A stretch of DNA of 64,000 nucleotides, taken from the NCBI GenBank assembly GCA_050633585.1, contig JBOEGT010000036.1, positions 13,951 to 77,950 of the forward strand. Reading direction: 5' to 3'. The DNA is from Arenicella sp. (GTDB lineage Bacteria > Pseudomonadota > Gammaproteobacteria > Arenicellales > Arenicellaceae). This document shows, one piece after another, positions 1-30,399 of the stretch. The number at the start of each line of letters is the position of its first letter. The stretch's first letter is position 1. The translations under genes were made by a program, and so were the position numbers. The notes beneath the pieces were generated by a model that ran no database searches, had not been told where the DNA came from, and worked only from the letters and a program-made list of their open reading frames with translations.

Positions 1-2
1 TG

Positions 3-467
3 GAATCAGGAGAGTTAGATGCATTAGAGTGGGTTGGACCATCGCTTGATTTGCGTATGGGTTTTCCAAAGGTTGCTCCATTCTATTACACCGGTTGGCA
101 TGAGCCAGCGACAGAGTTGAACTTTTTGGTGAATGAAAAAGCCTTTTCAGAACTGCCTAAAAAGTATCAACGGATACTCAAAACTGCCATGAAATTGGCG
201 GCGTATGATATGTATGTGCAAGCCTATCATGTCAGTGCTGAAAACTTGGCAACCATTCAAAAGGATTTTCCAAATGTTAAAATTCGCGCTTTTCCAACAA
301 AAGTTTATCGTAAATTGGTAAAGTCCACGAATGAGAAGTTAGATGAAATTGCGGAGTCAGGTGATGACTTAACAAAAGAAATCTTGCAATCCATTCGTAG
401 CTATCAAGAGAAAGCTCGTCTATGGACAAGATTTTCTGATCAAGCTTATACAAACAACGCGTTTTAA
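3..467 (+). CDS. TRAP transporter substrate-binding protein, DctP/TakP family (C-terminal fragment; the 5' end lies outside the window)
   Basis: The reading frame is open from the window edge. Its translation (LDALEWVGPSLDLRMGF...YYTGWHEP) aligns with the C-terminal halves of the four complete DctP paralogs in this window. Confidence 0.7.
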   Translation, partial: ESGELDALEWVGPSLDLRMGFPKVAPFYYTGWHEPATELNFLVNEKAFSELPKKYQRILKTAMKLAAYDMYVQAYHVSAENLATIQKDFPNVKIRAFPTKVYRKLVKSTNEKLDEIAESGDDLTKEILQSIRSYQEKARLWTRFSDQAYTNNAF

Positions 468-608
468 AAATAATAAAAAACACGTGAAAAAATTTCTTTG
501 CGTATAACTACGTATAGATCTACCTAGACTAGCGGATTTTATTTTTCAATGAATCCGCTAGACTATTAACTACCAACAATAAAACCTTCTAATTGAGGAA
601 TATAAATC

Positions 609-1670
609 ATGAAAAAAATGGCAAAAGTAGCTGCGGTTCTTGCAGCGGCAGCCTTCACAAGCAATGCGTTGGCAGCAGACATTACATTGAAGCTGGCTCA
701 TGTATGGCCAAAAGACTTCCCTTACTTTGCAACATCAGTATCGGAATATGCTGATCTCGTTTCTGAATTATCAGACGGGAAAATTGAGATTAAAGTTGAT
801 AGTAAAAACAAACACAAAGCGAATGCTGGTGGTGTTTTTGACTTCGTGAAGTCTGGTCAATACGATATTGGACAATCCGCATCTTACTATTATGGTGGTA
901 AAGATCCAGACACGTTATTTTTCACAACGATGCCATTTGGCATGACAGCGACTGAGCAAACAGCTTGGTTCTATGAAGGCGGTGGTCTTGATCTCGCCAA
1001 CAAAGTCTATGCAAAGCATGGCATGGAAGTGATGCCAGCGGCTAACACTGGCCAACAAATGGGTGGTTGGTTTCGCAAAGAGATTAATAGCGTTGACGAC
1101 TTAAAAGGCCTGAAAATGCGTATCCCTGGTTACGGCGGTAAAGTCATCGCGGGCTTGGGTGCTGTACCAACAAACTTGCCAGCAGGTGAGTTATATCAAG
1201 CACTAGAGCGTGGCACAATTGATGCGCTAGAGTGGGTTGGACCATCTCTTGATTTACGTATGGGCTTCCATAAAGTTGCACCCTACTACTACACAGGTTG
1301 GCATGAGCCTTCAACGGAATTGATGTACTTTTTCAACAAAAAGAAAATGGACTCTTTGCCAAAATGGGCACAATCTATTTTACGTAATGCGGCTAAGTTA
1401 ACGGCTTACTCAGCATCTAGTGAAATGTTTGATGCATCGGCTACTAACTGGGCGTCGATTACAACTGAGTATCCAAATGTGAAAGTAAAAAGTTTCCCAA
1501 CAGAAGTCATTGATGCATTGAAAGCCTCGAATGACAAGTTGATTGCTGAAGCGGCTGCAAAAGGCGGTTTAGCAAAAGAAATCATTGATTCGCAAGCGGC
1601 TTATTTGAAAAAAGCTCGTGCTTGGACAAGTATTGGTGATAAAGCTTACTTGAATTCAATCGCTAAGTAA
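609..1670 (+). CDS. dctP: TRAP transporter substrate-binding protein, DctP/TakP (COG4663-like) family
   Basis: 353 aa with a signal peptide ending in an AxA-type cleavage site. It carries the WPKDFP, MRIPG and EWVGP...YYTGWHEP motifs shared with its paralogs. It is followed by a terminator and then dctQ-dctM. Confidence 0.8.
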   Translation: MKKMAKVAAVLAAAAFTSNALAADITLKLAHVWPKDFPYFATSVSEYADLVSELSDGKIEIKVDSKNKHKANAGGVFDFVKSGQYDIGQSASYYYGGKDPDTLFFTTMPFGMTATEQTAWFYEGGGLDLANKVYAKHGMEVMPAANTGQQMGGWFRKEINSVDDLKGLKMRIPGYGGKVIAGLGAVPTNLPAGELYQALERGTIDALEWVGPSLDLRMGFHKVAPYYYTGWHEPSTELMYFFNKKKMDSLPKWAQSILRNAAKLTAYSASSEMFDASATNWASITTEYPNVKVKSFPTEVIDALKASNDKLIAEAAAKGGLAKEIIDSQAAYLKKARAWTSIGDKAYLNSIAK

Positions 1671-1691
1671 GTTTTAGCGAAGTGTTTACTG

Positions 1692-1726
1692 AAAGGGCGA
1701 AAACATTGTTTTCGCCCTTTTTTTAA
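1692..1726 (+). terminator. rho-independent terminator or attenuator between dctP and dctQM
   Basis: A 13-bp GC-containing stem (AAAGGGCGAAAAC / GTTTTCGCCCTTT) is followed by a T-run of six or more. Confidence 0.7.
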
Positions 1727-1777
1727 AGTCACAAACATATTATTGTAAAAATTTTCAATGAACGACTTAGGTTTATT

Positions 1778-2428
1778 ATGTTATTAAAGTTAGAAAAGGG
1801 GATTAATAAGCTCATGGATTGGGTAGGCATTTTTGCCGGCATTCTATTGATATTGTTAGTCGTTGTGATTGCCTTTAATGTGTTCAATCGTTATTGGTTT
1901 CAAATTGATGGCGTTGGTGTTGGCTTTGAAGAGTTAGGTTGGCATATTTATTCAGCCGTTTTTATGTTGGGTATACCCTTCGCTCTTAGGTCTGGCTCAC
2001 ATGTTCGAGTCGATTTAATCTTTGAAAACTTAACGCCTAAATCACAAGCGATTATTGACTTGGTTGGGTCATTGATTTTTCTCACTCCACTTTGTTTGAT
2101 CGTCATCTGGGGTGGTTGGATTTATGTGATAGAAGCATGGCAACTGGGTTCTCATCCAGATGCATTTTCTGACTTAATACGACAAATCATTACCACGGGT
2201 ATTGGAGAACAAAGCCAAGATCCAGGTGGTTTGTTAAATCGATGGTTTATTAAAGGCTTGATTCCTTTTACTTTCTTATTATTACTCCTAGCAGCAATTT
2301 CTTTCATGATTCACAAAATTAATATTTTATTGAATGTCGAAAAAGCCGATGACAAAGTCGTACATGGGCAGAGCTATATTGATGCGGGTCTAGAAAACGC
2401 ATCGGATACTACAGCAGAGGAGAAATAG
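1778..2428 (+). CDS. dctQ: TRAP transporter small permease, DctQ-like
   Basis: 216 aa and hydrophobic with four predicted TM segments. It sits immediately upstream of, and 2 nt from, a DctM-like gene. Confidence 0.65.
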   Translation: MLLKLEKGINKLMDWVGIFAGILLILLVVVIAFNVFNRYWFQIDGVGVGFEELGWHIYSAVFMLGIPFALRSGSHVRVDLIFENLTPKSQAIIDLVGSLIFLTPLCLIVIWGGWIYVIEAWQLGSHPDAFSDLIRQIITTGIGEQSQDPGGLLNRWFIKGLIPFTFLLLLLAAISFMIHKINILLNVEKADDKVVHGQSYIDAGLENASDTTAEEK

Positions 2429-2430
2429 TC

Positions 2431-3753
2431 ATGATGGGAGTATCAATTTTTATTGTCGCCTTGTTAGTCCTTTTATTTGGATTTCCGGTTGCATTTACCT
2501 TTGCGGGTATTGGCATTATTTTTGTTATCTTCTTTGCCGAAGCAAATCAATTAGTGCAAATTCCACATAGAATTTATGCCAACTTTGGTGATGGCGGTGA
2601 AGGTGTTGTTTTGATGGCAATACCACTTTTCATCTACATGGGCTTAATTCTTCAGCGAACTAAGTTGGCGGAACAATTGCTGGAGTCCATGGGCCGGCTG
2701 TTTGGTTCATTGCGAGGCGGTGTGGCGATTTCAACCGTATTAGTCGGTGCTCTTTTAGCGGCATCAACGGGTGTGGTTGGCGCTAGCGTAGTGGCAATGG
2801 GGTTAATTTCCTTGCCTGTTATGCTCAGATACGGCTATAGCAAAGAACTCGCGACAGGGACTATTTGCGCGGCTGGAACACTTGGACAAATTATTCCACC
2901 GTCAATTGTGTTAATCATCTTAGGTGATGTATTGAGTGTGCCTGTTGGCGATTTATTCCGCGCTGCTATTGTGCCGGGTTTAATTTTGATTGGTTGTTAT
3001 ATCACCTATATTTTACTTTTTTGCATCATAAAGCCTGATTCTGCGCCACCTGTTCCGTTGGAAGATGATAGCGTCTCTAAGACGAAGGTTATCCTTGATG
3101 CATTAGTCGCTGTAGTGCCGCCATTATTATTAATTTTGGTCGTATTAGGGTCTATTTTTTCAGGCTTTGCTACGCCGACAGAGTCTTCTGCCTTAGGGTG
3201 TATTGGCGCCGTTGTGTTGGCAATTGCTTATCGAAAATTTTCATTCTCAATGTTTTGGGAAGGGTCTTTAGAGACAGTCAAAATCACGGCTATGGTATTT
3301 GCTGTGTTGCTTGGCGCATCAATTTTTTCAATGGGTTTTGCATACACTGGTGGTGAGGAAGAGGTTGAAAAGTTATTACTGAGTATTCCGGGTGAGAAAT
3401 GGGGATTTTTGATTTTCGTGATGTTACTCATCATGGTGTTAGGTTTTTTCTTAGACTACATTGAAATTTCATATATTGTATTACCTTTGGTGTATGTCGT
3501 TGTCGAAGAACTAGGCATCAATGTTGTATGGTTTGCTATTCTGGTTGCAATGAACTTACAAACATCATTCCTGACACCACCATTTGGGTTTGCCCTCTTT
3601 TATTTAAAAGGAGTGGCTCCAGATAATGTGAGGACAGCGGATATTTATCGTGGTGTACTACCCTTTATTATGATTCAGTTCACTGTAGTGCTAGCGATTC
3701 TATTCTTCCCAGAATGGTTTGGCCTAACATCTGAAGCCGCTAAATTATGGTAA
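2431..3753 (+). CDS. dctM: TRAP transporter large permease, DctM
   Basis: 440-aa polytopic membrane protein. It shares about 50% identity by eye with the second DctM at 8726..10117, including the LGQIIPPSI and TSFLTPPFGFALFYLKGVAP motifs. Confidence 0.8.
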   Translation: MMGVSIFIVALLVLLFGFPVAFTFAGIGIIFVIFFAEANQLVQIPHRIYANFGDGGEGVVLMAIPLFIYMGLILQRTKLAEQLLESMGRLFGSLRGGVAISTVLVGALLAASTGVVGASVVAMGLISLPVMLRYGYSKELATGTICAAGTLGQIIPPSIVLIILGDVLSVPVGDLFRAAIVPGLILIGCYITYILLFCIIKPDSAPPVPLEDDSVSKTKVILDALVAVVPPLLLILVVLGSIFSGFATPTESSALGCIGAVVLAIAYRKFSFSMFWEGSLETVKITAMVFAVLLGASIFSMGFAYTGGEEEVEKLLLSIPGEKWGFLIFVMLLIMVLGFFLDYIEISYIVLPLVYVVVEELGINVVWFAILVAMNLQTSFLTPPFGFALFYLKGVAPDNVRTADIYRGVLPFIMIQFTVVLAILFFPEWFGLTSEAAKLW

Positions 3754-3823
3754 CGCCTATTGGGTCGGTGTCAGTTGTGTAGAAAATACAGTTGGCTAGT
3801 GCATCTTTAGCCAATGTTATACT

Positions 3824-3858
3824 GAAGGCGTCTTCATTTTCAATGAAGGCGCTTTTTT
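3824..3858 (+). terminator. rho-independent terminator after dctM
   Basis: An imperfect 11-bp stem (GCGTCTTCATT / AATGAAGGCGC) is followed by TTTTTT. Confidence 0.55.
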
Positions 3859-3892
3859 GTTTGTACGGTTTAATCGATCGAGGTGTTAAGCA

Positions 3893-5287
3893 ATGAAATT
3901 TAATCAAAAAGTTTTTCTGCTAGCAGTATTGCCAATGTTAGCGGCAATGCTATTCACAATTCTGTTAGTCAATGTTGAAACACGGCAATTGTCGAATAAA
4001 CAAGCATTCGAGCTCAAGCAAGCGCTACTAGATATTCGGAAAAATGAGTTAGTTAACTATACGAATTTGGCATTTTCAGCCATTGACCATATTTATAGTT
4101 CGCCAGAAATTGATGAAGGTTTTGCTAAAGAACGTGTGAAAGAAATTCTGACCAATCTTGAATATGCTCAAGATGGTTATTTCTATGCTTATACAGATAC
4201 AGGGACGAATGTTGTGCACCCAAAACAACCCTACCGTTTAGGAGAAAATTATTGGGATTTAACAGATCCTGAGGGCAAGCCAGTGATTCGCGAATTAATT
4301 CAACAGGCTCAAGGCGGTGGTGGATATACTGAATATATTTGGGATAAACCCTCGTTGGGAGCAACGGCCAAAAAATTAGGTTACTCCAGATTGTTAGATA
4401 ATTGGGGATGGATGGTCGGCACCGGCATGTATATTGATGACCTGGATAATCAAGTGATGACGATGCAATCTTCTATGGATAAACATATCAAACAAACCAG
4501 TTTTGTTATTTTAGCCATTGCATTAATTTCCGCTGCATTAATATTTATTTCTAATTTAGCGCTTCAGGTAAATGAACGAAAATTAGCAGACAATAAACTC
4601 CAAGAATTGACGAAGCGAGTTTTGAACACTCAAGATGAAGAGCGGCGACGAGTGTCACGTGAATTGCACGATGGTATATCTCAATCATTGGTAGCGATTA
4701 AGTACTCTCTTGAAGAAGCGGCATCCTTATTTGAGAAAAAAGACTCAGAACATGCGCGTTTAGTCGAACAAAGTAATCACTATTTAGAGACGACAATGCA
4801 AGAAGTTAGACGCATATCTCGTGATTTACACCCTAGCGTTTTAGACGACTTTGGTTTGATGGCCGCTGTCGATAGCATGGTTGAAGAGTTTAAAAAGCGC
4901 TGTGATATCGATGTGAACTTAAAGAAACTCAAGGTTCGTAACTTGTTGCCTCAAGATGCGAAAACCGCATTGTATCGTGTGACGCAAGAAGCCTTAACAA
5001 ATATTGAAAGGCATGCCGGAGCAAGTAAGGTCGACATTGAATTTAAAATGCGTGGTAAATGGTTTCAAGTGAGCATTGCGGATGATGGCGTTGGATTTGA
5101 TGTACACGGTAAGCGATTTAAAAAAATGCCAGAAGTAGGCATTGGTTTGAGGAATATGTCTGAGCGTTTGGGGTACTTTAAAGGGTCATTTGATATTAAA
5201 TCGACAGAGAACGGCACTGTGATTGTGGCAGCTATTCCTAGAAACTTAATTATGCAACCAACGCTGAATCAAACGGAGGAAGTATGA
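3893..5287 (+). CDS. sensor histidine kinase: periplasmic single-Cache domain, HisKA_3 (NarX/UhpB-type) and HATPase_c
   Basis: 464 aa. Two TM segments flank a periplasmic Cache-like domain (YAYTDTG...HP...G.NYWD). The H-box ELHDGISQSL and G-box DDGVGF are present. The gene overlaps the downstream response regulator by 4 nt. Confidence 0.75.
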   Translation: MKFNQKVFLLAVLPMLAAMLFTILLVNVETRQLSNKQAFELKQALLDIRKNELVNYTNLAFSAIDHIYSSPEIDEGFAKERVKEILTNLEYAQDGYFYAYTDTGTNVVHPKQPYRLGENYWDLTDPEGKPVIRELIQQAQGGGGYTEYIWDKPSLGATAKKLGYSRLLDNWGWMVGTGMYIDDLDNQVMTMQSSMDKHIKQTSFVILAIALISAALIFISNLALQVNERKLADNKLQELTKRVLNTQDEERRRVSRELHDGISQSLVAIKYSLEEAASLFEKKDSEHARLVEQSNHYLETTMQEVRRISRDLHPSVLDDFGLMAAVDSMVEEFKKRCDIDVNLKKLKVRNLLPQDAKTALYRVTQEALTNIERHAGASKVDIEFKMRGKWFQVSIADDGVGFDVHGKRFKKMPEVGIGLRNMSERLGYFKGSFDIKSTENGTVIVAAIPRNLIMQPTLNQTEEV

Positions 5288-5922
5288 ACACTGAAAAAAG
5301 TAAGATAACACTGGTGATTGTAGATGATCACCCCTTGGTCTTAGATGGGCTTGTCTCGCGTTTGGAACGTTCTGAACAAGTTGAAGTGATTGGTCAAGCA
5401 AGTAATGGGCAAGAGGCTATTCAACTGGTAGAGAAATTGATGCCTGATGTGGTGTTAATGGATATCAATATGCCTGTGATGAATGGCATCGATGCGGCTG
5501 AGATTTTTAAAGAACGATTTACAGCAGTTAAGTTATTGGTTTTGAGTATGCACGATGATCGCGAGTATGTGATGAACATGGCACGAGCGGGTGCCAAAGG
5601 ATATGTGTTAAAGAGTGCGTCAGCGGATGAGATGCTCATGGCGATCAAAGCCGTCCATATGGGAGGCGTGTACTTCAGCCCCAGTATTGCGGAAATTCTC
5701 ACGTCAAAAGAGAATAATATTCACGACGATACCCTAAGCTCGCGTGAACAAGTGGTGTTGAAATTACTTGCGAGTGGTATGAGCAATAAGGAAATGGCCA
5801 GAGAATTAGATATTAGTGTTCGAACCGTTGAAACGCACCGTCGTAATATAAAAAATAAACTTGAAATTTCAACGACCCCAGGCCTGGTCAGATATGCTAT
5901 TGACCATGGCTTAAGTGACTAA
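5284..5922 (+). CDS. response regulator, NarL/FixJ family (REC plus LuxR-type HTH)
   Basis: 212 aa. The receiver domain carries the VVLMDINMP phospho-acceptor region, and the C-terminus has a LuxR HTH (LSSREQVVLKLLASGMSNKEMARELDISVRTVETHR). Confidence 0.8.
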   Translation: MNTEKSKITLVIVDDHPLVLDGLVSRLERSEQVEVIGQASNGQEAIQLVEKLMPDVVLMDINMPVMNGIDAAEIFKERFTAVKLLVLSMHDDREYVMNMARAGAKGYVLKSASADEMLMAIKAVHMGGVYFSPSIAEILTSKENNIHDDTLSSREQVVLKLLASGMSNKEMARELDISVRTVETHRRNIKNKLEISTTPGLVRYAIDHGLSD

Positions 5923-5923
5923 T

Positions 5924-6748
5924 TTATTGATTTTCTTTTTCTAATAACGATGCCATTTCATTACTAATCGATTCTAGATTTTCTCCTCGCAGTAGGTCTT
6001 CGCTATTATGAGACTCCTCGTAGCGTAATTCAGCGATTCGTTTTTCAATCCCAGCAATATGTTTCTTCATTCTTTCACGAGCAAGAATCGGGTCTTTATT
6101 GAGGATTGCTTCCATGATTCCGCCATGTTCTTTGGGTAAGCGAACATGACGGTTTTCGGTGGATTCGTGGAAATAACTGCTCACACTCACTTCCAGTACG
6201 TTCAGCAAATTGCGCATTAAATGCACGATAGCAGGGTTGTTCGAGGCTTCGGCAATGGCCATATGAAATGCAACATCGGCTTTTGCTTCTTTCTCTGGCA
6301 CGCCATCATTATGCGTTTCCAGTAATTTTTCAAACGATAGTTTAATGTTTTCTCGTTGAGCGTTAGTGGCACGTTTAGCGGCAAAATAGGCAGAAAGTGC
6401 TTCTACGGCAAAACGCAGTTCTAAGATATCAAAAGAAGCATTTCGATCATTCGCAAATAACTCAAGCAAAGGATCTGCAAAAGAAGCACCTATTTCGTCA
6501 GTGATGTAGTTCCCACCGCCAGGAACTTTACGAACGATGCCTTTGGCCTGAAGTTTATTGATTGCTTCACGAATCGATGGGCGGGATACATTAAATTGCT
6601 CGGCCAATTCTCGTTCGGGCGGTAATTTATTACCGGCCAATAACTCTCCAGATACGATACGTTGTTGAATTGCTTCAGCAACAGTGTCTGAAATGGAGGT
6701 GGATTTAACTTCTTGAAATTTCATAAACCTTGGAGCATTAAAAGGCAA
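5924..6748 (-). CDS. GntR/FadR-family transcriptional regulator (wHTH plus FCD domain); candidate LutR-like regulator
   Basis: The N-terminal GntR HTH (KLPPERELAEQFNVSRPSIREAINKLQAKGIV) is followed by an FCD-type all-helical C-terminus. The start may be the internal Met at 6724, which has an AAGG Shine-Dalgarno sequence. It is divergent from dctP at 6969. Confidence 0.75.
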   Translation of the reverse strand: MPFNAPRFMKFQEVKSTSISDTVAEAIQQRIVSGELLAGNKLPPERELAEQFNVSRPSIREAINKLQAKGIVRKVPGGGNYITDEIGASFADPLLELFANDRNASFDILELRFAVEALSAYFAAKRATNAQRENIKLSFEKLLETHNDGVPEKEAKADVAFHMAIAEASNNPAIVHLMRNLLNVLEVSVSSYFHESTENRHVRLPKEHGGIMEAILNKDPILARERMKKHIAGIEKRIAELRYEESHNSEDLLRGENLESISNEMASLLEKENQ

Positions 6749-6763
6749 CTTTATTGTTTTTTA

Positions 6764-6787
6764 TTATAAATGACGCGTCATTTATAA
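6764..6787. promoter_or_regulatory. perfect 24-bp palindrome TTATAAATGACGCGTCATTTATAA
   Basis: I read this directly from the sequence. It lies just upstream of, or overlaps, the GntR start region in the divergent intergenic region. Confidence 0.5.
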
Positions 6788-6836
6788 GTGGTCAAACATA
6801 ATTTTAACATGGCAATTTTGAATTCTAATATAAAAT

Positions 6837-6851
6837 ATTGGTATTACCAAT
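6837..6851. promoter_or_regulatory. FadR/GntR-type operator-like palindrome ATTGGTATTACCAAT (copy 1)
   Basis: A 7-1-7 inverted repeat with a TGGTA-N-TACCA core. The identical 15-mer recurs at 25909..25923. Confidence 0.5.
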
Positions 6852-6876
6852 ATACCTGTGATACCCTCCTGCCACT

Positions 6877-6891
6877 ATTGGTAATACCAAT
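6877..6891. promoter_or_regulatory. FadR/GntR-type operator-like palindrome ATTGGTAATACCAAT (copy 2)
   Basis: Same motif as copy 1 with a different centre base. It lies 40 bp downstream of copy 1 and upstream of dctP at 6969. Confidence 0.5.
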
Positions 6892-6968
6892 AAACCATTA
6901 TTCAGAAATTAGACGTTTGATGGCTAAATTAACAATAAATACATAGCCAAATATTCCGGAGGAAATTC

Positions 6969-8036
6969 ATGAAATCATTTTTAATCAAGTCTGCTGCAGT
7001 TGCAGGTTTAACCGCGATCGCAGTAGGAATGTCGACACCAGCACTAGCAAAAGATAAACCTGTACTGTTGAAAATGCCCATTTACTACGGCTCTCACCTA
7101 CCTGGTTTAGGTTCCACGGCAAAATACGTTGCTGATAGAGCGTCTTTGCTAAGTGGTGGAGATGTCAAAATTAAATTATACGAACCGAAGAAATTAATTG
7201 GTTCAAAAGAAATTTTAGATGCAGTTTCAACCGGTAAAGTTCAGGCGGGCTTTGATACACCAGGGAATTGGGGAGGCAAAATGCCGGCGGCACGATTATT
7301 TTCTGCCGTTCCTTTTGGGCCAGAGGCACCAGAATACTTAGCGTGGCTAATGTATGGAAACGGTGGGAAATTACACCAAGAATTGTATGACAATTCAGGC
7401 TATAACGTGAAAACATTGACGTGCGGCATCATTGCCCCTGAAACCTCAGGCTGGTTCAAAAAAGAGATTAAAAGCCCAGAAGACTTAAAAGGCTTAAAAA
7501 TGCGTTTCTTTGGCTTAGGTGCTGAAGTGATGGAAAAATTAGGCGTGAGTACGGTTGGCCTTCCGGGCGGTGAAATTTTCCCAGCATTGGAAAAAGGAGC
7601 GATTGATGCAACAGAATTTTCAATGCCTGCCATCGATAAACGTATTGGTGTTAGTAAAATTGCAAAATACAACTACTATCCAGGTTGGCATCAGCAAGCA
7701 ACTGTTTTTGAACTCATTGTGAACAAAGACACCTGGAACGGGATGAGTGAGCGCCAACAAGCGATTGTGACAGAGCTTTGTCGTGCAGCGACCTTAGATT
7801 CATTAGCATTGGGTGAAGCTATTCAACCTCCCGTTATGGCGGAAAATGAAGCCAATGGTGTGAAAAATTTGTATTGGTCTGAAGATATGTTGGACACGTT
7901 TAAAGCAAAATGGGATGAAGTCGTGGTTGAACAAAAAGCAGCTGATCCAGCATTTGCAAAAATTTGGGCTGATTTAGAGGCATTCCGTAATAGCTATGCG
8001 CTATGGGAAAAGAATGCATTCTTGCCTCGCAAGTAA
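6969..8036 (+). CDS. dctP: TRAP transporter substrate-binding protein, DctP/TakP family
   Basis: 355 aa with a signal peptide (ALA-KD). Paralog motifs are present (MRFFGLGAEV, YYPGWHQQ). It is followed by an attenuator hairpin and dctQM. Confidence 0.8.
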   Translation: MKSFLIKSAAVAGLTAIAVGMSTPALAKDKPVLLKMPIYYGSHLPGLGSTAKYVADRASLLSGGDVKIKLYEPKKLIGSKEILDAVSTGKVQAGFDTPGNWGGKMPAARLFSAVPFGPEAPEYLAWLMYGNGGKLHQELYDNSGYNVKTLTCGIIAPETSGWFKKEIKSPEDLKGLKMRFFGLGAEVMEKLGVSTVGLPGGEIFPALEKGAIDATEFSMPAIDKRIGVSKIAKYNYYPGWHQQATVFELIVNKDTWNGMSERQQAIVTELCRAATLDSLALGEAIQPPVMAENEANGVKNLYWSEDMLDTFKAKWDEVVVEQKAADPAFAKIWADLEAFRNSYALWEKNAFLPRK

Positions 8037-8085
8037 AGCTTCGTCACTTTTACGTTCTACTTTTTAATAAGTAAATATTGCGTTT

Positions 8086-8118
8086 CAAGGATAGAAGGTT
8101 TTCCTTCTATCCTTGTTT
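8086..8118 (+). terminator. intra-operon hairpin or attenuator between dctP and dctQ
   Basis: A perfect 13-bp stem (CAAGGATAGAAGG / CCTTCTATCCTTG) with a TTTT loop is followed by TTTCAC. The T-tract is weak. Confidence 0.5.
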
Positions 8119-8153
8119 CACGCTTAATTTATTTGATTGAATAGGAAAAAACC

Positions 8154-8729
8154 ATGTCTTCAGGTTACCAATCTCTCGATCCAATACCTCCTGTGAGTGA
8201 TACTTCATTAGCGAAGTTCACCTTTGTTTTGGATAAAATTATTCATTTATCAGCACGCATTTTTTGTTGGTGTTACGTCTTATTAATAGCGGCTATTTTA
8301 ATCAATGTTGTTCTACGTTATGGCTTTAATAATGGCCTTATTGTTTTCGAAGAAATTCAGTGGCATTTATATGCTTTAGGCATGATGTTTGGTTTGTCAT
8401 ATGCCGAAATTACCAACAGCCAAGTCAGAGTCGACGTCGTTGCAGACAAGCTAACACGGCGCACTGTCCGGAAATGGGAAATTTTTGGCGCTTTGTTTTT
8501 TGTTTTACCATTTATCTTCGTTGTTCTATTTAACAGTATTGATTATGTGGCTGATTCATATCGGGTGAGTGAATCTTCCAATTCACCGCTTGGCTTGCCT
8601 TATCGTTGGGCCATTAAAGCTGTCATTCCAGCTAGCTTTGTTCTACTAGCAATTGCTGTTGTATCAAGGTTGCTGCATAACATTGATGCACTGATGACAC
8701 ACCAAGATCAGGTTAAAGGAGGTGAGTGA
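8154..8729 (+). CDS. dctQ: TRAP transporter small permease, DctQ
   Basis: 191 aa with four TM segments. It overlaps the downstream dctM by 4 nt. Confidence 0.7.
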   Translation: MSSGYQSLDPIPPVSDTSLAKFTFVLDKIIHLSARIFCWCYVLLIAAILINVVLRYGFNNGLIVFEEIQWHLYALGMMFGLSYAEITNSQVRVDVVADKLTRRTVRKWEIFGALFFVLPFIFVVLFNSIDYVADSYRVSESSNSPLGLPYRWAIKAVIPASFVLLAIAVVSRLLHNIDALMTHQDQVKGGE

Positions 8730-10117
8730 TGGAAATTAATGAATTATTGGTGATTGGCATGTTCCTCACGTTCATTGCCTTTTTGTTTACAGGGATTCCT
8801 GTTGGCTATGTCTTAGCCGGTGTTGGCGTCATATTTGGTTTTTTTGGATATTTGTCCGATGTGTATTTAGGCACCATTACAGGCATAGACCTCAATACAA
8901 TGGGCTTGGTGGTATCACGTCTATTTTCACTCATGGAAAATTGGGTATTAGTCGCATTGCCGATGTTCATCTTCATGGGGTTAATGTTAGACAAGTCAGG
9001 TGTCGCTGAACGATTGATGCTCTCGATGCAAGATTTATTTGGCAAAGTGCGAGGAGGCCTGGCGATTACAGTGACGTTGATTGGGATTATTCTAGCCGCA
9101 TCGACCGGAATTATTGGTGCGTCAGTTGTACTCTTAGGGTTATTATCTTTGCCAGCAATGATGAAGCAAGGTTATAGCAAGGCGCTAGCAACTGGAACAA
9201 TTTGTAGTGCTGGAACGTTAGGCATCTTGCTGCCCCCAAGTATCATGCTTGTGATCATGGCAGATCAATTAGCGTTATCCGTTGGGGATTTATTCATGGC
9301 TGCTGTCTTTCCTGGTTTAATACTTGGCGGCTTATATTTGGCCTATATATTTATAGTGTCCTACGCTAAACCGAATATGGCGCCTCTGCCTGCAGATTAC
9401 CGAAAAATGGAATGGTCAATTGTTTGGTCTGTTCTGAAAAACATTGTGCCACCGTTATTGTTAATTTTAGCCGTATTAGGGTCAATTTTTGCAGGTATTG
9501 CAACGCCGACTGAAGCCAGTGGTATAGGGGCTTTGGGAGCGACTTTATTAGCAGCCTATAATAAGCAACTCAATGTGAGTGTGTTTAAAGAAGTCAGCTT
9601 AGATGCTTATCGCACAACGGCCTATATTTTTATGATTTTCATCGGTGCGACAATGTTTGCGTTGGTGTTACGAGAGTTAGGTGGTGATGAACTGATTGAA
9701 CGAGGTTTAACCAGCTTACCTTTTGGGCCCTATGGTGTGTTGATTTCTATTTTATTGATCGTTTTCTTATTGGGTTTCTTATTAGATTGGATAGAAATCA
9801 CCTTGATCGTATTGCCATTATTAGCCCCGGTTATTATGGGTATGGATTTTGATGTAAATGGTTATGGCACTATTGATGAGCCAGTAGTCATTTGGTTTGT
9901 CATGCTGGTTGCCATCACGTTGCAAACGTCTTTTTTAACCCCGCCAGTAGGGTTTGCCTTGTTTTATTTAAAAGGGGTATGCCCGCCTGAAGTGAAGCTG
10001 ACAGATATCTATAAAGGTGTCACACCATTTATTGTTTTGCAGCTCATTGGGTTATCGATTGTTGTGTTATATCCATCGTTAACAACATGGCTTCCAGCCA
10101 TCGTGTATGGCAATTAA
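8726..10117 (+). CDS. dctM: TRAP transporter large permease, DctM
   Basis: 463-aa polytopic protein. It is a paralog of the gene at 2431..3753. Confidence 0.8.
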   Translation: MMEINELLVIGMFLTFIAFLFTGIPVGYVLAGVGVIFGFFGYLSDVYLGTITGIDLNTMGLVVSRLFSLMENWVLVALPMFIFMGLMLDKSGVAERLMLSMQDLFGKVRGGLAITVTLIGIILAASTGIIGASVVLLGLLSLPAMMKQGYSKALATGTICSAGTLGILLPPSIMLVIMADQLALSVGDLFMAAVFPGLILGGLYLAYIFIVSYAKPNMAPLPADYRKMEWSIVWSVLKNIVPPLLLILAVLGSIFAGIATPTEASGIGALGATLLAAYNKQLNVSVFKEVSLDAYRTTAYIFMIFIGATMFALVLRELGGDELIERGLTSLPFGPYGVLISILLIVFLLGFLLDWIEITLIVLPLLAPVIMGMDFDVNGYGTIDEPVVIWFVMLVAITLQTSFLTPPVGFALFYLKGVCPPEVKLTDIYKGVTPFIVLQLIGLSIVVLYPSLTTWLPAIVYGN

Positions 10118-10140
10118 GTTGGATGAAACGCTTTGGAACA

Positions 10141-10920
10141 TTATGAATCATCCAAGAGTTGGGCTCTGATTAAACGCTGTTCTTGTCGTTCAATCTCAAG
10201 AATACGATCGCGCTTGTCTCTGACATGGTCCATGGCGGCACGAGCAGCACTGTCAGGTTTTCGGTCAATAATGGCATTAAAGATCAGGCGATGATAAGCC
10301 TGAATCTGTTGTCTAGATCTTTCATGATGGTAAAGATTGCTAACGGTAACAACAACGCTGTTTTGAATGAGTTGCATGAGGTTTTGTAATGTATGAATCA
10401 AAACGGGGTTATGAGATGCGGCGTAAATTGAACGATGAAATTCATGGTCTAACTGTGCGGCATCCAGCATTTCAGCGTTGTTTGCATAGGCTTCATCCAT
10501 GGTATTGAATGCTTTGGTGATGCGATATAGGTCTTTTTCAGTTGCACGTTCAGCGGCGAGTTTGGCCGCTTGACCTTCTAAGAGTTCACGGACTTCGAGA
10601 AGATCAAAAAGCATTCGCGGGTGGTCATCATAGACTTTATTTAAGGTATTCGTTTCGGAGGAATTTTCTAAAAAGTTGCTAACAAAAGATCCTTTTCCAT
10701 GAACTGTATGAATGACACCGCGACCACGTAGTTCTTTGATGGCTTCTCTTACAACGGGTCTAGATGCATTTAAGCGTTCGCAGAGTTGTCTTTCAGAGGG
10801 TATTTTTTCACCGGGTTGTAAAAATCCATCGACAATTAAGCCTTCGATTTGTTGCATGATTTTTGAGCTGGATGACGCCGAAGTGTTTTTGTTTGACATT
10901 TTATTGAAAAAACTGGTCAT
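10141..10920 (-). CDS. glcC: GntR/FadR-family regulator, GlcC-like (glycolate operon regulator candidate)
   Basis: The GntR HTH (KIPSERQLCERLNASRPVVREAIKELRGRGVI) is followed by an FCD domain. The gene is divergent from glcB-glcG-glcDEF, the arrangement seen for E. coli glcC. Confidence 0.7.
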   Translation of the reverse strand: MTSFFNKMSNKNTSASSSSKIMQQIEGLIVDGFLQPGEKIPSERQLCERLNASRPVVREAIKELRGRGVIHTVHGKGSFVSNFLENSSETNTLNKVYDDHPRMLFDLLEVRELLEGQAAKLAAERATEKDLYRITKAFNTMDEAYANNAEMLDAAQLDHEFHRSIYAASHNPVLIHTLQNLMQLIQNSVVVTVSNLYHHERSRQQIQAYHRLIFNAIIDRKPDSAARAAMDHVRDKRDRILEIERQEQRLIRAQLLDDS

Positions 10921-10926
10921 ACCAGT
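10912..10926. promoter_or_regulatory. operator-like inverted repeat ACTGGTCATACCAGT (copy 1)
   Basis: ACTGGT-N3-ACCAGT matches the GntR/FadR consensus t.GT...AC.a. It overlaps the annotated start of the regulator gene. Confidence 0.5.
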
Positions 10927-10986
10927 AAGAGATTAAACATGAATAATAGCATTAAATGAGTTTTTAACTATGTTTCGTACGAATTC

Positions 10987-11001
10987 ACTGGTCATACCAG
11001 T
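10987..11001. promoter_or_regulatory. operator-like inverted repeat ACTGGTCATACCAGT (copy 2)
   Basis: An identical 15-mer lies 75 bp downstream of copy 1, in the glcC/glcB divergent promoter region. Confidence 0.5.
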
Positions 11002-11084
11002 ATTTTTGGCATGTAGACACTGGCCACTGTGCTCTCTATATTGGTGAATACATGAAACCCCTATGAAAATGAGGCACGACTCAA

Positions 11085-13250
11085 ATGACAAGCTATATCA
11101 AGAAAAATAACCTTTCAGTACATCCAGATTTAATTGAGCTGTTGGATAATCATATATTGCCAGGGTTGTCTGTATCGGCAGAGCAAGTGTGGACAGGTTT
11201 TTCGAAATTAGTTGAAGAATTAACGCCAGTGAACAAATCGTTACTGGCTAAACGCGAAGCCTTGCAAACTCAAATTGATGAATGGCACACAGCGAACCCA
11301 AATGCCTTGCCGAATAACTTTCAAGCCTATAAAGCCTTCTTACAAGAGATTGGCTATTTGGTTCCAGAAGGTGATGATTTTGCGGCGACCACAGAAAATG
11401 TTGATGCAGAAATTGCGAGTATTGCCGGGCCTCAATTAGTCGTTCCAGTGAATAACGCACGTTTTGCATTGAATGCCGCGAATGCGCGTTGGGGTAGTTT
11501 ATATGATGCTTACTATGGTACAGACGTCATTGATGAAAACGAAGGACGTGAAAAAACAGCGGCATATAACCCCATGCGTGGTAAAGCTGTGATTCAAAAA
11601 GCCGCTGAATTTCTGGACCACTCTATTCCGTTGGCTCTTGGAAAGCATGCCGAAGTTGCGGACTATCACATTGTTGAAAATCAAGTCATTGTGACATTAG
11701 AAAATGGCTCAACCTCAATGTTAAGCAATCCGGAACAATTTATCGCCAGTAACCAAAACGGGGATAAATTAGAGCTGCTATTCGAGAAAAACAATTTGCA
11801 TATTGAGGTCCAAATTGATCGAGATCATCCTATTGGTAAAGATTCGGCTGCGGGTGTTAAAGACATCGTGATTGAGTCAGCGATCAGTACCATTATGGAT
11901 TGTGAAGACTCTGTTGCTGCTGTTGACGGTGAGGATAAAGCCTTGGTGTACCGTAATTGGCTAGGCTTAATGAAAGGTGATTTACAAGAATCTTTTCAAA
12001 AAGGAGGTAAAACGATTACTCGTCAATTAAATCCAAATCGTACTTATACGGGTAAAGATGGAAATAAAGTGGAGTTACATGGCCGCAGTTTGTTATTGGT
12101 CAGGAACGTGGGTCATCTGATGACTAATCCTGCTATTTTGGACGGCCAAGGTAATCAAATTCCGGAAGGAATCATGGATGCGTTGTTCACGACGTTATGT
12201 GCGATGCATGACTTTAAAGATGATGCGCCTATTCACAATAGTCGTCAAAAAAGCATTTATATTGTTAAGCCAAAAATGCATGGACCGGATGAAGTGGCTT
12301 TTGCGAACACACTGTTTTCTCGAGTGGAAGATATGTTAGGTTTACCGCGCAATACAATGAAAATTGGTGTGATGGATGAAGAACGGCGCACGACAGTTAA
12401 TTTGAAGGAATGTATTCGTGCGGTGAAAGAGCGTATTGTGTTTATTAACACAGGGTTCTTGGATCGTACGGGTGATGAAATTCATACATCAATGCAAGCG
12501 GGCGCGTTCTTACCAAAAGAGCAAATCAAGCAAAAAACATGGATTCATGCCTATGAGGATTGGAATGTTGATACAGGCATTCAATGTGGTCTTCCTGGCG
12601 TCGCTCAAATCGGTAAAGGCATGTGGCCAAAGCCTGATGAAATGGCGCAAATGTTGGTCGCGAAAATTGATCATCCGAAGGCTGGAGCTAATTGTGCTTG
12701 GGTGCCCTCACCGACAGGTGCCACATTGCATGCTACTCACTACCACCAAGTCGATGTTTTTGCGGTTCAACAAGCATTAGCAAAACGACAAAAAGCAAAT
12801 GTAGATGATATTTTAACGGTACCATTGTTGGGTGATGTCAGTTTGACTCCCCAAGAAATACAAAATGAGTTAGATAACAACGCGCAAGGTATTTTAGGCT
12901 ATGTTGTGAGGTGGATTGATCAAGGTGTCGGTTGTTCAAAAGTGCCGGATATCAGCAACGTGGGCTTAATGGAAGACCGTGCGACACTGCGTATTTCAAG
13001 TCAATTGCTAGCGAATTGGCTTGAACACGGCATTTGTTCAGAACAAGAGGTGATGGAAGCCATGAAGCGAATGGCTCGCATTGTTGATCAACAAAATGAA
13101 AAAGATGCGAGTTACCAGAAAATGGCACCAAACTTCAATGGCGTTGCATTTAAATCAGCGTGTTCTCTTGTGTTTGAAGGGGTGAGTCAACCGAGTGGTT
13201 ATACTGAGCCATTGCTACATGCGTATCGCTTAGAGGCTAAAGCACAATAA
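11085..13250 (+). CDS. glcB: malate synthase G
   Basis: 721 aa. The length and sequence are typical of malate synthase G, and the gene heads a glc-type operon. Confidence 0.85.
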
Positions 13251-25908: not shown

Positions 25909-25923
25909 AGCATATTTTCTGAT
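25909..25923. promoter_or_regulatory. operator-like palindrome ATTGGTATTACCAAT (identical to 6837..6851)
   Basis: An exact copy of the motif from the GntR/dctP divergent region. It lies 70 bp upstream of dctP at 25993. Confidence 0.5.
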
Positions 25924-25992
25924 AAATTATTGGTATTACCAATTTACAATATTTATGATAGAATCACTATCCCTTTATGGGAGGAGTAAAAT

Positions 25993-27063
25993 ATGCGAAA
26001 AATAATCACCATTATTTGTATGGCGTTCACCCTGTTCAGTTCTTCATGGGCACAGTCACAATCAACCTATCAGTGGAAAATTGCTGAAACATGGCCCAAA
26101 GACTTCCCGTTGTTTGGAGATGCAGTGAAAAAGTTTATCGATAATGTCACACTATTATCGAATGGTCGTTTAAACATAAAGTCCGAAGCACGAGATGTTC
26201 ATAAAAAACCCTTAGGCGTATTTGATATGGTCAAAGAGGGAGACTATGAAATGGGTCATTCCGCTTCTTTTTATTGGAAAGACAAAGATATCAATACTGC
26301 CTTTTTTACGTCTTTGCCGATGGGATTAACAGCGGTTGAGCAATATGGATGGTTTTATTATGGTGGCGGTCAATCACTGATGGAAAAAGCCTATGCGAAA
26401 TATGGTTTATTATCGTTTCCTGGCGGTAATACGGGCATGCAAATGGGCGGATGGTTCAATAAACCGATTAATACCATTGAAGATTTGCAAGGTCTAAAAA
26501 TGCGCATTCCAGGTCTTGGGGGGCAAGTCTTGCAAGAATTAGGTGTTGAAACCGTCAATATCCCAGCGGGTGATTTATTAGACGCATTGAAAACGGGCAA
26601 AGTAGATGCATTAGAATGGGTTGGTCCTTCTATGGATGTGGGTATGGGTTTCCATACGGCAGCAAAATATTATTACACTGGTTGGCATGAACCGGCCACT
26701 GAATTGCAATTCATCATTAATCAAAAAGCATTCGATACATTGCCTAAAGATTTGCAGCAAGTTGTTTTAAAATCGATGCGTTTGGCCGCATATGATACGT
26801 ACATTCAGGCGTACCACTCGAATTCAGAAAACTTGGATCTGATTTTGAGAGAACATCCAGATATTATTATTCGTGCATTTCCGCCTCGCGTATTTAAAAA
26901 AATACTTGCTAAAACAATCGAAGTATTGGATGCCTTAGAGAAATCTTCTAATGACCCATTAACTCGTGATATTGTGGGTTCTATTAAAAATTACAAAAAT
27001 AAAGTCCGTCAATGGACACGTTTTTCTGATACCGCGTATATTAACTCCACGCCAGGGTTTTAA
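25993..27063 (+). CDS. dctP: TRAP transporter substrate-binding protein, DctP/TakP family (orphan; co-oriented with lutABC)
   Basis: 356 aa with a signal peptide and the paralog motifs WKIAETWPKDFPLFGD, MRIPGLGGQV and YYTGWHEP. Confidence 0.8.
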   Translation: MRKIITIICMAFTLFSSSWAQSQSTYQWKIAETWPKDFPLFGDAVKKFIDNVTLLSNGRLNIKSEARDVHKKPLGVFDMVKEGDYEMGHSASFYWKDKDINTAFFTSLPMGLTAVEQYGWFYYGGGQSLMEKAYAKYGLLSFPGGNTGMQMGGWFNKPINTIEDLQGLKMRIPGLGGQVLQELGVETVNIPAGDLLDALKTGKVDALEWVGPSMDVGMGFHTAAKYYYTGWHEPATELQFIINQKAFDTLPKDLQQVVLKSMRLAAYDTYIQAYHSNSENLDLILREHPDIIIRAFPPRVFKKILAKTIEVLDALEKSSNDPLTRDIVGSIKNYKNKVRQWTRFSDTAYINSTPGF

Positions 27064-27111: not shown

Positions 27112-27894
27112 ATGTCAAAAGATAAGCAACATAAACGTGAAGTTGGCCTTTTTGTCACATGCCTCGCTGATGTGATGAGGCCATCCATTGGTTTTGCCGC
27201 TATACAGTTGTTAGAGCAAGCAGGCTGTAACGTGATGGTGCCAACAACACAAACCTGCTGCGGGCAACCAGCGTTTAATAGCGGGGATGATTTTGGAACG
27301 TCAAAAATTGCCAAACAATTGATTACACAATTTGAAGCGTTTGATCATGTGGTCGTGCCATCGGGTTCTTGTGCTTCAATGATAAAAACGCATTTTCCTG
27401 AGCTTTTTCAGGATGACCCATTTTGGCTTGATCGCAGCCAGAGGCTATCAGCTAAAACATATGAACTATTGTCTTTCTTAGTAGATATATGTGGTTTTTC
27501 GCCTGAATCTATCACGTTAAAAAACAGCTATACCTATCATCACAGTTGCTCAGGCCTTCGTGACATGAAAGTCACCACTCAGCCCAAAAAACTACTGAAC
27601 ACTGTGGAAGGCCTCGAACATATTGAGCTCAAAGGTAGCACTGAATGTTGTGGTTTTGGGGGGACGTTTTGTGTCAAGTATTCTGATATCTCTAATCAAA
27701 TTGTTGAAGAGAAAGTGGATAACATTCGTGAGACTGGAGCCAATATTTTACTCGGAGGCGATTGGGGGTGCCTAATGAATATGTCTGGAAAACTCAATCG
27801 AGATAAGTCACCAGACGAACCCAAGATCACGGCTATGCATACGGCGGAAGTCTTGGCAGGAATGGCCGATCAAATTCTCACTGAATCGAAATGA
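27112..27894 (+). CDS. lutA: L-lactate utilisation protein LutA (CCG-domain Fe-S oxidoreductase)
   Basis: 260 aa with two CCG cysteine-rich domains (CCGQP...CGFGG), YkgE-like. Confidence 0.8.
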   Translation: MSKDKQHKREVGLFVTCLADVMRPSIGFAAIQLLEQAGCNVMVPTTQTCCGQPAFNSGDDFGTSKIAKQLITQFEAFDHVVVPSGSCASMIKTHFPELFQDDPFWLDRSQRLSAKTYELLSFLVDICGFSPESITLKNSYTYHHSCSGLRDMKVTTQPKKLLNTVEGLEHIELKGSTECCGFGGTFCVKYSDISNQIVEEKVDNIRETGANILLGGDWGCLMNMSGKLNRDKSPDEPKITAMHTAEVLAGMADQILTESK

Positions 27895-29318: not shown

Positions 29319-29974
29319 AGCAATCAGCGCGAGATGCGATCTTAAACCGCCTATATAATGCTGCAGCAAATAACGGCCAAGAATGTTCTGCTGATAGCAT
29401 TAATATGCAAGCTCAAGAAATGTTAAGAAATTCACCACATGCGCCACTCGCTTCGTCAGACCCCATCGAAGCCTTTATAGCCAGAATTGCAAACGGCCAT
29501 GTGATTGGGACAAGCTGCTCAACGTTAAGCTCGGTTCAAGAATTGCCAGCCGCTGTGAAGTCATATCTGCAAGAACATAAACTTGGAGAAGATATTGGCA
29601 TTCAAGAGTTACCCCTGTTTACTGCGCTGGATTGGCAAGGCTTGAATAACACCGGGCCTCAGTTGGATGGGTTGGAAGATGGGTTAACATCGCTGAGTTA
29701 TGCAGATTTTGGGATTGCTGAAACCGGTTCGGTGGTTTTCCACTCGGGAGAGAATCGACCGGTGTTATTGAATTTTTTATCATTGCATCAAATGATTGTG
29801 ATTCACGCCGATAATATTTTGTCTTTGCTAGATGATTATGCCAAAAACGTGGATACGGTGGCGCCTCCAAGAAACACGATTTGGATTACAGGAGCGAGTG
29901 GAACAACCGATATTGAAGGTGTCTTGGTTCAAGGCGCTCATGGCCCTTGTTTTGTCCATATTTTTATTATTTAA
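29315..29974 (+). CDS. lutC: L-lactate utilisation protein LutC
   Basis: 219 aa with a LUD domain. It overlaps lutB by 4 nt. Confidence 0.7.
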   Translation: MKQSARDAILNRLYNAAANNGQECSADSINMQAQEMLRNSPHAPLASSDPIEAFIARIANGHVIGTSCSTLSSVQELPAAVKSYLQEHKLGEDIGIQELPLFTALDWQGLNNTGPQLDGLEDGLTSLSYADFGIAETGSVVFHSGENRPVLLNFLSLHQMIVIHADNILSLLDDYAKNVDTVAPPRNTIWITGASGTTDIEGVLVQGAHGPCFVHIFII

Positions 29975-30129
29975 GCAGAATTACGCAGTTTTACGTATAA
30001 AAAAAGTATTAACCCCTATCAAAATGAGTCAAAAATGACTCATTTTCCCTTAACATATTTTCGTTGACCTTTATAATAAGCATTTCCTAATATACGAATT
30101 TTTCACACCTACCATAGGCCGAGAACCAC

Positions 30130-30399
30130 ATGCTAGTAGATCAATTAACACAAGCCGTCACATTATTCGGTTTGGGCATGGGAACAGTATTTGTTTTGCT
30201 GACCCTTCTTATTACCTGCGTCAGTTTACTGTCTTCCGCCTGTTTAAAGTTTGAAACCAATCCAGTACATGCTGTGCCAAATATTGGTGCCGCAGCCACA
30301 CCTCGAGTTGACCCGAGTCGTCAAAACAGCATGTCTGAGCAAGAAAAATCCATTGTGATTGCTGCCATACAAGCGCACCGTCAGGCCAAAGGCCTGTAA
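30130..30399 (+). CDS. oadG: oxaloacetate decarboxylase gamma subunit
   Basis: 89 aa with a single N-terminal TM segment. It is directly upstream of oadA. Confidence 0.65.
   Translation: MLVDQLTQAVTLFGLGMGTVFVLLTLLITCVSLLSSACLKFETNPVHAVPNIGAAATPRVDPSRQNSMSEQEKSIVIAAIQAHRQAKGL

Follow-up and report, generated by a model that had tools for sequence, protein, structure and literature searches.

Predicted co-regulation of a TRAP transport operon and a dctP-lutABC operon by a PdhR/LldR-like regulator in Arenicella

A 64-kb stretch of an Arenicella sp. contig (GenBank assembly GCA_050633585.1, contig JBOEGT010000036.1, positions 13,951 to 77,950; "the window" denotes this whole stretch) carries three copies of a 15-bp palindrome, O1 to O3, which are predicted to be the operators of an adjacent regulator related to PdhR and LldR. 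With a probability of roughly 0.7, this regulator would jointly control the tripartite ATP-independent periplasmic (TRAP) transport operon dctPQM, divergently oriented to the regulator gene, and an operon in which an orphan binding-protein gene, dctP, precedes the lactate oxidation genes lutABC. A preliminary description of this DNA had proposed that one GntR/FadR regulator governs both the TRAP operon and dctP-lutABC; the proposal finds support in phylogenetic footprinting across about 12 independent related loci. The sites, their rarity, their conservation together with regulator and targets, and the identities of the genes are direct results of the present analysis. The elements concerned are the following:

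6837-6851, no strand assigned: predicted operator O1, ATTGGTATTACCAAT; exact motif match and perfect PdhR-type box, its centre 120 nt upstream of the regulator ATG
6877-6891, no strand assigned: predicted operator O2, ATTGGTAATACCAAT; exact match, its centre 40 bp from that of O1 and 85 nt upstream of the dctP1 ATG
25929-25943, no strand assigned: predicted operator O3, ATTGGTATTACCAAT; exact match in the intergenic region between the divergent genes eamA and dctP (orphan)
5924-6724, minus strand: GntR/FCD regulator (FadR subfamily, PdhR/LldR clade) of 266 amino acids with GntR and FCD domains, the predicted binder of O1 to O3
6969-8036, plus strand: dctP1, TakP-type TRAP solute-binding protein (Pfam DctP, PF03480, 134 bits)
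8154-8729, plus strand: dctQ1, TRAP small membrane subunit (Pfam DctQ, PF04290, 74 bits)
8726-10117, plus strand: dctM1, TRAP large membrane subunit (TIGR00786, 294 bits against a cut-off of 268; Pfam DctM, PF06808, 248 bits)
25993-27063, plus strand: orphan TakP-family binding protein, first gene of the lut operon (Pfam DctP, 169 bits)
27112-27894, plus strand: lutA (lldE), CCG-domain subunit of the LutABC L-lactate oxidising complex (Pfam CCG in two stretches, 104.5 bits)
27891-29318, plus strand: lutB (lldF), LUD and 4Fe-4S subunit (TIGR00273, LutB/LldF, 447.5 bits against a cut-off of 444.8)
29315-29974, plus strand: lutC (lldG), LUD-domain subunit (Pfam LUD_dom, 59.8 bits), its start overlapping the lutB stop

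The motif ATTGGTAWTACCAAT (ATTGGTA-W-TACCAAT) matches three times in the window, whereas 100 shuffles of the same sequence that preserved its dinucleotides never contained it (mean 0.00, maximum 0); all three copies are intergenic and promoter-proximal, O1 and O2 between the regulator gene and dctPQM, and O3 before the orphan dctP. The coordinates previously assigned to O1 and O2 were exact; the third identical 15-mer reported upstream of the orphan dctP also exists, yet at 25929-25943 and not at 25909-25923, a shift of 20 nt, and instead of the 70 bp given for its distance to the gene, its 3' end lies 49 nt and its centre 57 nt before the ATG at 25993. When up to three mismatches are allowed, the window yields in addition only scattered hits and one other palindrome pair, ACTGGTCATACCAGT. 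In a weight-matrix scan of the window, O1 to O3 score 26-29 bits and the next-best match 14 bits; since the training sites of this matrix, all those collected across loci, were picked by similarity, the scan is descriptive only.

The palindrome recurs wherever the regulator gene was found in related contigs (designated L plus a number), which were obtained by scanning GTDB species genomes with a 34-orthologue alignment and from a lookup of metagenomic homologues. Ten of these loci (L006, L007, L008, L009, L010, L011, L046, L053, L054, and L055) contain regulator orthologues of 44-80% identity, and in all ten the regulator gene is closely preceded by a box that keeps the TGGT...ACCA core intact and has 0-3 mismatches. 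The divergent arrangement of regulator and dctPQM is kept in eight of them (L006, L007, L009, L011, L046, L053, L054, L055), with DctP 72-86% and DctM 84-92% identical to the window proteins. In the alignment of the intergenic regions the boxes are the best-conserved blocks; the spacing within a pair is 37-40 bp, or four helical turns, in the close relatives L046, L053, and L054, and 19-20 bp, or two turns, in the distant relatives L009, L010, and L011. The flanks of O1 are conserved in L006, L008, and L046 as TAATATAAAAT-box-ATACCTrTG; in L008 no TRAP operon adjoins the regulator gene, yet one box with O1-like flanks is present. Since the box follows the regulator gene, the regulator protein is its likely binder and is probably autoregulated. 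Otherwise, the genome scan returned mostly distant deltaproteobacterial FCD regulators of 30-36% identity (L012-L042), and no exact copy of the box occurs in these loci, which were left out of the comparison.

A second conserved element was observed in the divergent region, the block AATGGCTAAATTAACA at approximately 6919-6935, downstream of O2 and 35-50 nt upstream of the dctP1 ATG; it is common to the window, L046, and L006, is missing in L053 and L054, and matched no promoter or known motif.

The second locus shows the same pattern. Orthologues of the orphan DctP, 77-84% identical, occur in five independent contig families (L043/44, L045, L046/47, and L048/49 among them), and upstream of every one the box is found 45-55 nt before the ATG with 0-1 mismatch, in flanks that have diverged; because MAFFT misplaced the L048 box in an alignment of these upstream regions, conservation was read from motif coordinates. 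Downstream of the orphan dctP, lutABC follows in L046 and L048/49; in L043/44 and L045 a single flavin mononucleotide (FMN)-dependent dehydrogenase gene replaces lutABC (L043 5807-6952, L044 7117-8262, L045 7103-8248). The best model for its product is L-lactate dehydrogenase, at 325 bits compared to a cut-off of 376, so that the gene is LldD-like rather than a proven lldD. The exchange of lutABC for an lldD-like gene behind the same operator is a case of non-orthologous displacement; whether the lactate dehydrogenase operon contains the one or the other, the orphan binding-protein gene keeps its place as the first gene. The gene upstream of the box is variable: eamA was considered as an alternative O3 target and rejected, as in L043/44 and L046 the upstream gene is a PhyH gene in the same orientation, with the box still present. 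Since the box persists where PhyH replaces the divergent eamA, O3 belongs to the orphan dctP.

Two relatives join the elements that are dispersed in the window. In L046 the regulator gene is divergent from dctPQM-PhyH-dctP-lutABC-oadG, so that both loci, 19 kb apart in the window, are contiguous; in L055 it is divergent from dctPQM-dld-lldD-like in a single orientation, with DctP 79% and DctM 84% identical to the window proteins, a Dld with FAD_binding_4 and Lact-deh-memb domains, and an lldD-like gene 80% identical to that of L045. Taken with the conservation at the second locus, these arrangements connect lactate oxidation to the regulator, the TRAP system, and the orphan DctP.

Behind the lactate dehydrogenase genes, both in the window and in all of the relatives L043-L049, lies oadGAB, coding for a Na+-translocating oxaloacetate decarboxylase (oadG 30130-30399, oadA 30476-32257, oadB 32329-33459). 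As a candidate regulon member oadGAB was rejected, since a strong promoter-like site of its own (TTAACA-16-TATAAT, 30050-30077) precedes it and no box is present.

The conservation data effectively refute the explanation that the palindromes are chance occurrences or a dispersed repeat without regulatory role. The window is AT-rich, and most of the metagenome contigs among the matches listed for the 15-mer (see below) have no recognisable related gene nearby, as a chance origin would lead one to expect; yet three copies against none expected, all in promoter regions, and orthologous positions retained in about 12 independent loci while the flanks diverged, are a different pattern. The preliminary description had named a common genome-wide repeat as a finding that would overturn its proposal; in fact the motif occurs only three times in the window, and in 52 related loci every exact copy precedes either the regulator gene or the orphan dctP.

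The regulator itself had been called as a GntR/FadR-type gene at 5924-6748; reading frame and family hold, and the true start is most probably the ATG at 6724 rather than the TTG at 6748. A lookup of the 274-amino-acid product of the TTG start gave no recorded protein; the 266-amino-acid product of the ATG start is on record verbatim in several NCBI metagenome-assembled genomes (MAGs) of Arenicella sp. The protein combines an N-terminal GntR winged helix-turn-helix domain (PF00392; Pfam 77.8 bits, cut-off 27; residues 20-82 of the 274-residue reading frame) with a C-terminal FCD domain (PF07729; 81.1 bits, cut-off 24.3). The FCD residues D150, H154, H200, and H222 are invariant in the alignment of 34 orthologues and, by analogy to established FCD structures, are probably metal ligands. 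Bacillus subtilis regulates lutABC and a lactate transporter (lutP) by the GntR/FCD-type regulator LutR; no LutR-named NCBIfam model was found among the matches of the window regulator. Measured against NCBIfam models, E. coli PdhR and LldR, and a GlcC-like protein of the window, its affinities are to the proteobacterial PdhR/LldR/GlcC group, and it appears to be PdhR/LldR-like rather than LutR-like. Its identity is 35% with both E. coli PdhR and E. coli LldR, and 31% with the GlcC-like regulator, whose gene lies at a distance of 4 kb. Its recognition helix, VSRPSIREAI, nearly equals the PdhR helix (VSRPSLREAI) and resembles the LldR helix (VSRNSLREAL) less, in agreement with a PdhR-type box.

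The boxes also fit the family. A consensus TKGT-N3-ACMA is common to the FadR-subfamily members GlcC, LldR, and PdhR, and double sites in divergently transcribed regions are common (PMC4494728); the earlier assignment of the palindromes to the FadR type is borne out, as TTGGT-ATT-ACCAA fits this consensus in all three copies. More specifically, O1 to O3 are perfect 15-mer matches to the E. coli PdhR box, (A)ATTGGTnnnACCAAT(T) (PMC7660256). The E. coli LldR box, AAnTGGTCnGACCAnTT, which occurs twice per target (PMC10272880), shares the TGGT-N3-ACCA core and differs in its centre, TC-n-GA instead of the TA-W-TA found here. The gene linkage is nevertheless of the LldR type, with boxes before dctP-lutABC (O3), before dctP and an lldD-like gene (L043-L045), and before dctPQM-dld-lldD (L055).

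The exact 15-mer has a wide distribution. It was found in at least 120 JGI metagenome contigs, and in 23 of the matches listed a gene for a PdhR/LldR-like protein lies within 400 nt: 9 represent pdhR-aceE, 6 a PdhR-like gene divergent from lldP-lutABC or lutABC, 2 the lldPRD type, and a few others remain. Most of the matches listed have no informative neighbour genes, and the scan is useful only as an enrichment test. The PdhR-like regulators linked to lutABC (L100, L106, L107, L124, L149, L162) are 44-51% identical to E. coli PdhR and 37-39% to the window regulator; being nearer to the former, they constitute a separate lineage. At least three regulator lineages thus appear to use the identical 15-mer, canonical PdhR at aceE, PdhR-like proteins at lldP-lutABC, and the clade described here, and the control of lactate regulons through a PdhR-type box is already a widespread arrangement. 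The regulons of LldR, PdhR, and GlcC have been reconstructed across Proteobacteria, and the PdhR of Shewanella is predicted to control lldP-dld and oadGAB (PMC5343134).

The sharing of one box by several lineages raises the question of which protein occupies it. Another PdhR/LldR paralogue encoded elsewhere in the genome could be the main occupant, in which case the adjacent regulator would recognise a different motif or share these sites. This is very unlikely; the box follows the adjacent regulator gene across genomes, even where no TRAP operon adjoins it (L008, L010), which is a signature of autoregulation, and the neighbouring GlcC-like paralogue has the distinct box ACTGGTCATACCAGT.

That GlcC-like protein is a second GntR/FCD regulator (251 bits compared to a cut-off of 301), whose gene faces glcB-glcG-glcDEF. 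Its own palindrome pair lies at 10912-10926 and 10987-11001, 75 bp apart, in the region 10857-11084; a similar GlcC-type pair, ACTGGTATTACCAGT, 77 bp apart, occurs in L054 (5600-5691), and a single box in L008 (6465-6479). The GlcC-type box differs from the PdhR type mainly at the symmetric positions 2 and 14, with C/G for T/A. One box is overlapped by the 259-amino-acid reading frame of the GlcC-like gene; the NCBI call of 238 amino acids, mapped from L001, places the start near 10856.

A more serious alternative is that the adjacent regulator is functionally a PdhR that senses pyruvate and governs a regulon for the uptake of pyruvate or other 2-oxo acids, lactate oxidation included; we regard this as unlikely, although several observations agree with it. 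The box is that of PdhR, the recognition helix is closest to PdhR, and the best NCBIfam match is PdhR (208 bits, compared to 186 bits for LldR). The control of lldP-dld and oadGAB predicted for Shewanella PdhR (PMC5343134) provides a precedent; the TRAP binding protein TakP binds pyruvate (PMC5812351), and LutABC yields pyruvate, which is also a likely substrate of the TRAP system. In one relative, L007, genes for a 2-oxoacid:ferredoxin oxidoreductase follow dctPQM. On the other hand, the score remains far under the PdhR equivalog cut-off; no aceE or aceF occurs near the regulator gene in the window or in L001-L011, L046, and L053-L055, the part of the genome searched being the window. The slot behind the orphan dctP is always filled by a lactate dehydrogenase (LutABC or LldD-like), and L055 adds Dld, the gene set of a lactate regulon. 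In its FCD metal site the regulator has a D-x3-H pair, which E. coli LldR shares and E. coli PdhR lacks.

The L007 neighbourhood (298-5654) contains, after dctPQM, genes with the POR gamma, alpha, and beta domains of this oxidoreductase, together with genes for a lutA-like CCG protein and a Pyr_redox_2/Fer4_20 protein; such a gene content hints that this TRAP system has a 2-oxo-acid link.

The gene calls for dctPQM (6969-10117) and for orphan dctP-lutABC in the preliminary description were confirmed by Pfam and NCBIfam. All three TRAP components are encoded in dctPQM1, and within lutABC the start and stop codons of neighbouring genes overlap. The closest solved relative of DctP1 is TakP (2HZK, E 1e-53), with the lactate-binding protein TTHA0766 also matched. 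The orphan DctP matches 4PET (E 5e-129) and 5CM6 (E 5e-128) over nearly its full length, followed by a ketoacid-binding protein (7UG8), TakP, and TTHA0766. Both binding proteins belong to the monocarboxylate clade of TakP and TTHA0766, which bind pyruvate and lactate, respectively (PMC5812351); pyruvate or lactate would be their predicted ligand.

The choice of effector is less certain than the regulon. Lactate is somewhat favoured, because the conserved targets are lactate dehydrogenases; pyruvate stays a live alternative, because O1 to O3 match the PdhR box of E. coli perfectly.

Several observations weigh against joint control of the two operons by the adjacent regulator, against lactate as its effector, or against the details of the proposed mechanism. 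The regulator falls below the cut-offs of the NCBIfam models for PdhR (NF007001, 208.4 bits, cut-off 330) and LldR (NF007741, 186.2 bits, cut-off 311) and reaches 139 bits with the GlcC model, so that it is an equivalog of none of the three. A true PdhR, if the genome encodes one, could bind O1 to O3 as well, since canonical PdhR recognises the identical box. Effector and substrate could be pyruvate, since TakP binds it. The structures 4PET and 5CM6, the closest solved relatives of the orphan binding protein, are presumably pyruvate complexes too, going by their PDB titles. In L010 (Granulosicoccaceae, 6117-12937), a regulator of 45% identity and a perfect box pair 20 bp apart adjoin genes for an ABC-transporter permease and ATPase and for a member of the mandelate racemase/enolase superfamily; as these are unrelated genes, the regulon is not fixed across the clade, and the neighbourhood suggests a shifted regulon. 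All promoter positions are consensus matches only, and a consensus search of the intergenic region found no convincing plus-strand promoter downstream of O2. Pure repression is an assumption, since E. coli LldR is a dual regulator.

The predicted promoters place the boxes where repression would be expected. O3 overlaps the -35 hexamer of a predicted plus-strand promoter with a TG extension, TTACCA-17-TAGAAT (25936-25964), which is the only good plus-strand prediction upstream of the orphan dctP; a stretch consisting of the box followed by TTTACAATATwTATGAT recurs in L045 and L046, and before dctP in L011. O1 contains the -35 hexamer (TTGGTA) of a predicted minus-strand promoter, TTGGTA-17-TAGAAT (6850-6822), that faces the regulator gene, and its first position coincides with, or is a few nucleotides from, the transcription starts expected from the plus-strand -10-like sequences TAATAT and TAAAAT.

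We infer that the adjacent regulator binds O1 to O3, and with these positions the simplest model would be repression by promoter occlusion, with repression being the more probable mode compared to activation. A regulator dimer would bind each 15-bp palindrome at the invariant core TGGTA-W-TACCA. In the divergent region two dimers would bind together in a cooperating manner, as expected from the distance of about four helical turns between O1 and O2. The bound pair would shut off the regulator's own promoter, the -35 hexamer of which is inside O1, and would also shut off dctPQM, since O1 covers the likely transcription start and O2 lies about 40 nt downstream of it. At the second locus the single box O3 would cover the -35 hexamer of the dctP(orphan)-lutABC promoter, and because of this overlap the regulator would compete with RNA polymerase. 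A 2-hydroxy or 2-oxo monocarboxylate at the FCD metal site would release the regulator, and lactate uptake and the oxidation of lactate to pyruvate would be induced together.

The regulator could also act as an activator or a dual regulator, rather than a simple repressor. E. coli LldR, with two boxes per target, activates lldPRD (PMC10272880), and the box spacing at the divergent loci, 20 or about 40 bp, is helix-phased; yet both O1 and O3 coincide in part with -35 hexamers of predicted promoters, and dctP transcription probably starts at O1, positions typical of repression, and either of these modes is quite unlikely.

As a predicted regulon under a common regulator, the system can be compared with its characterised counterparts. 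It shares with E. coli PdhR the GntR winged helix-turn-helix and FCD architecture, identical half-sites, a near-identical recognition helix, and a box before the regulator's own gene that implies autoregulation in both; it differs by an overall identity of 35%, by its position away from aceEF, by its TRAP and lactate dehydrogenase targets, by a box centre fixed as A-W-T, and by the FCD D-x3-H pair, which E. coli PdhR does not have. With the LldR systems of E. coli and Pseudomonas (lldPRD/lldPDE) it has in common the FadR subfamily, a regulon of lactate uptake and L-/D-lactate dehydrogenases, the TGGT-N3-ACCA core, and two boxes at the main locus, and the dctPQM-dld-lldD order of L055 mirrors lldP-lldD-dld; here the identity is again 35%, the box centre differs, a TRAP system stands in place of the LldP permease, and the regulon extends over two loci 19 kb apart. 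The metagenomic PdhR-like regulators divergent from lutABC have the same 15-mer and the same LutABC target; they are paired with an LldP permease, in contrast to the TRAP system found here. The binding proteins belong to the same clade as TakP, TTHA0766, and LakP of Thiobius, another gammaproteobacterium, where a TRAP lactate transporter, LakP-DctQM, has been annotated beside lutABC (PMC10952691); in the window an extra orphan binding protein heads the dehydrogenase operon, and the shared operator defines the regulatory link. A literature search for TRAP, L-lactate, and lldD under GntR control found no paper on this combination.

Overall, the unusual features are mild, the TRAP system in place of LldP and the orphan binding protein heading the dehydrogenase operon; as proposed, its mode of operation is that of the PdhR and LldR systems, within the FadR subfamily. 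The result is an ordinary but sound regulon prediction that leaves the understanding of the family unchanged. It provides a testable regulon for an uncultured marine Arenicella lineage, consisting of one regulator, three operators, a predicted TRAP importer for lactate or pyruvate, and LutABC; it gives a functional annotation to a well-conserved TRAP system, whose DctPQM proteins are 79-92% identical across relatives and which in one case is in an operon with dld and lldD; and it illustrates how FadR-type paralogues 4 kb apart, one PdhR/LldR-like and one GlcC-like, keep separate regulons by boxes that differ at two symmetric positions.

A bolder combination of ideas seems improbable: that the regulator represents a third, hitherto undescribed orthologous group alongside PdhR and LldR, with PdhR-type DNA specificity and a TRAP-based lactate regulon, and that the orphan binding protein is no spare part but a shared receptor, which hands lactate or pyruvate to a second DctQM module or signals to the neighbouring dCache histidine kinase. 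If true, either receptor role would cross-wire the two TRAP systems of the window. The orphan DctP is 34% identical to the co-regulated DctP1, compared to 46% to DctP0 and 54% to the partial DctP of the other, presumably two-component-controlled TRAP system; since it is nearer to the binding proteins of that system, it should not be assumed to feed the co-regulated DctQM.

The second TRAP system (window 1-3753) consists of two TakP-family binding-protein genes, one partial and ending at 467, the other at 609-1670, with dctQ and dctM; it is followed by genes for a dCache histidine kinase (3893-5287) and a NarL/GerE-type response regulator (5284-5922). Finally, in the near-identical MAG contig L002 (8823-9756), dctP1 was called as two fragments of 137 and 58 amino acids; such a split may reflect a frameshift, pseudogene formation, or faulty assembly.

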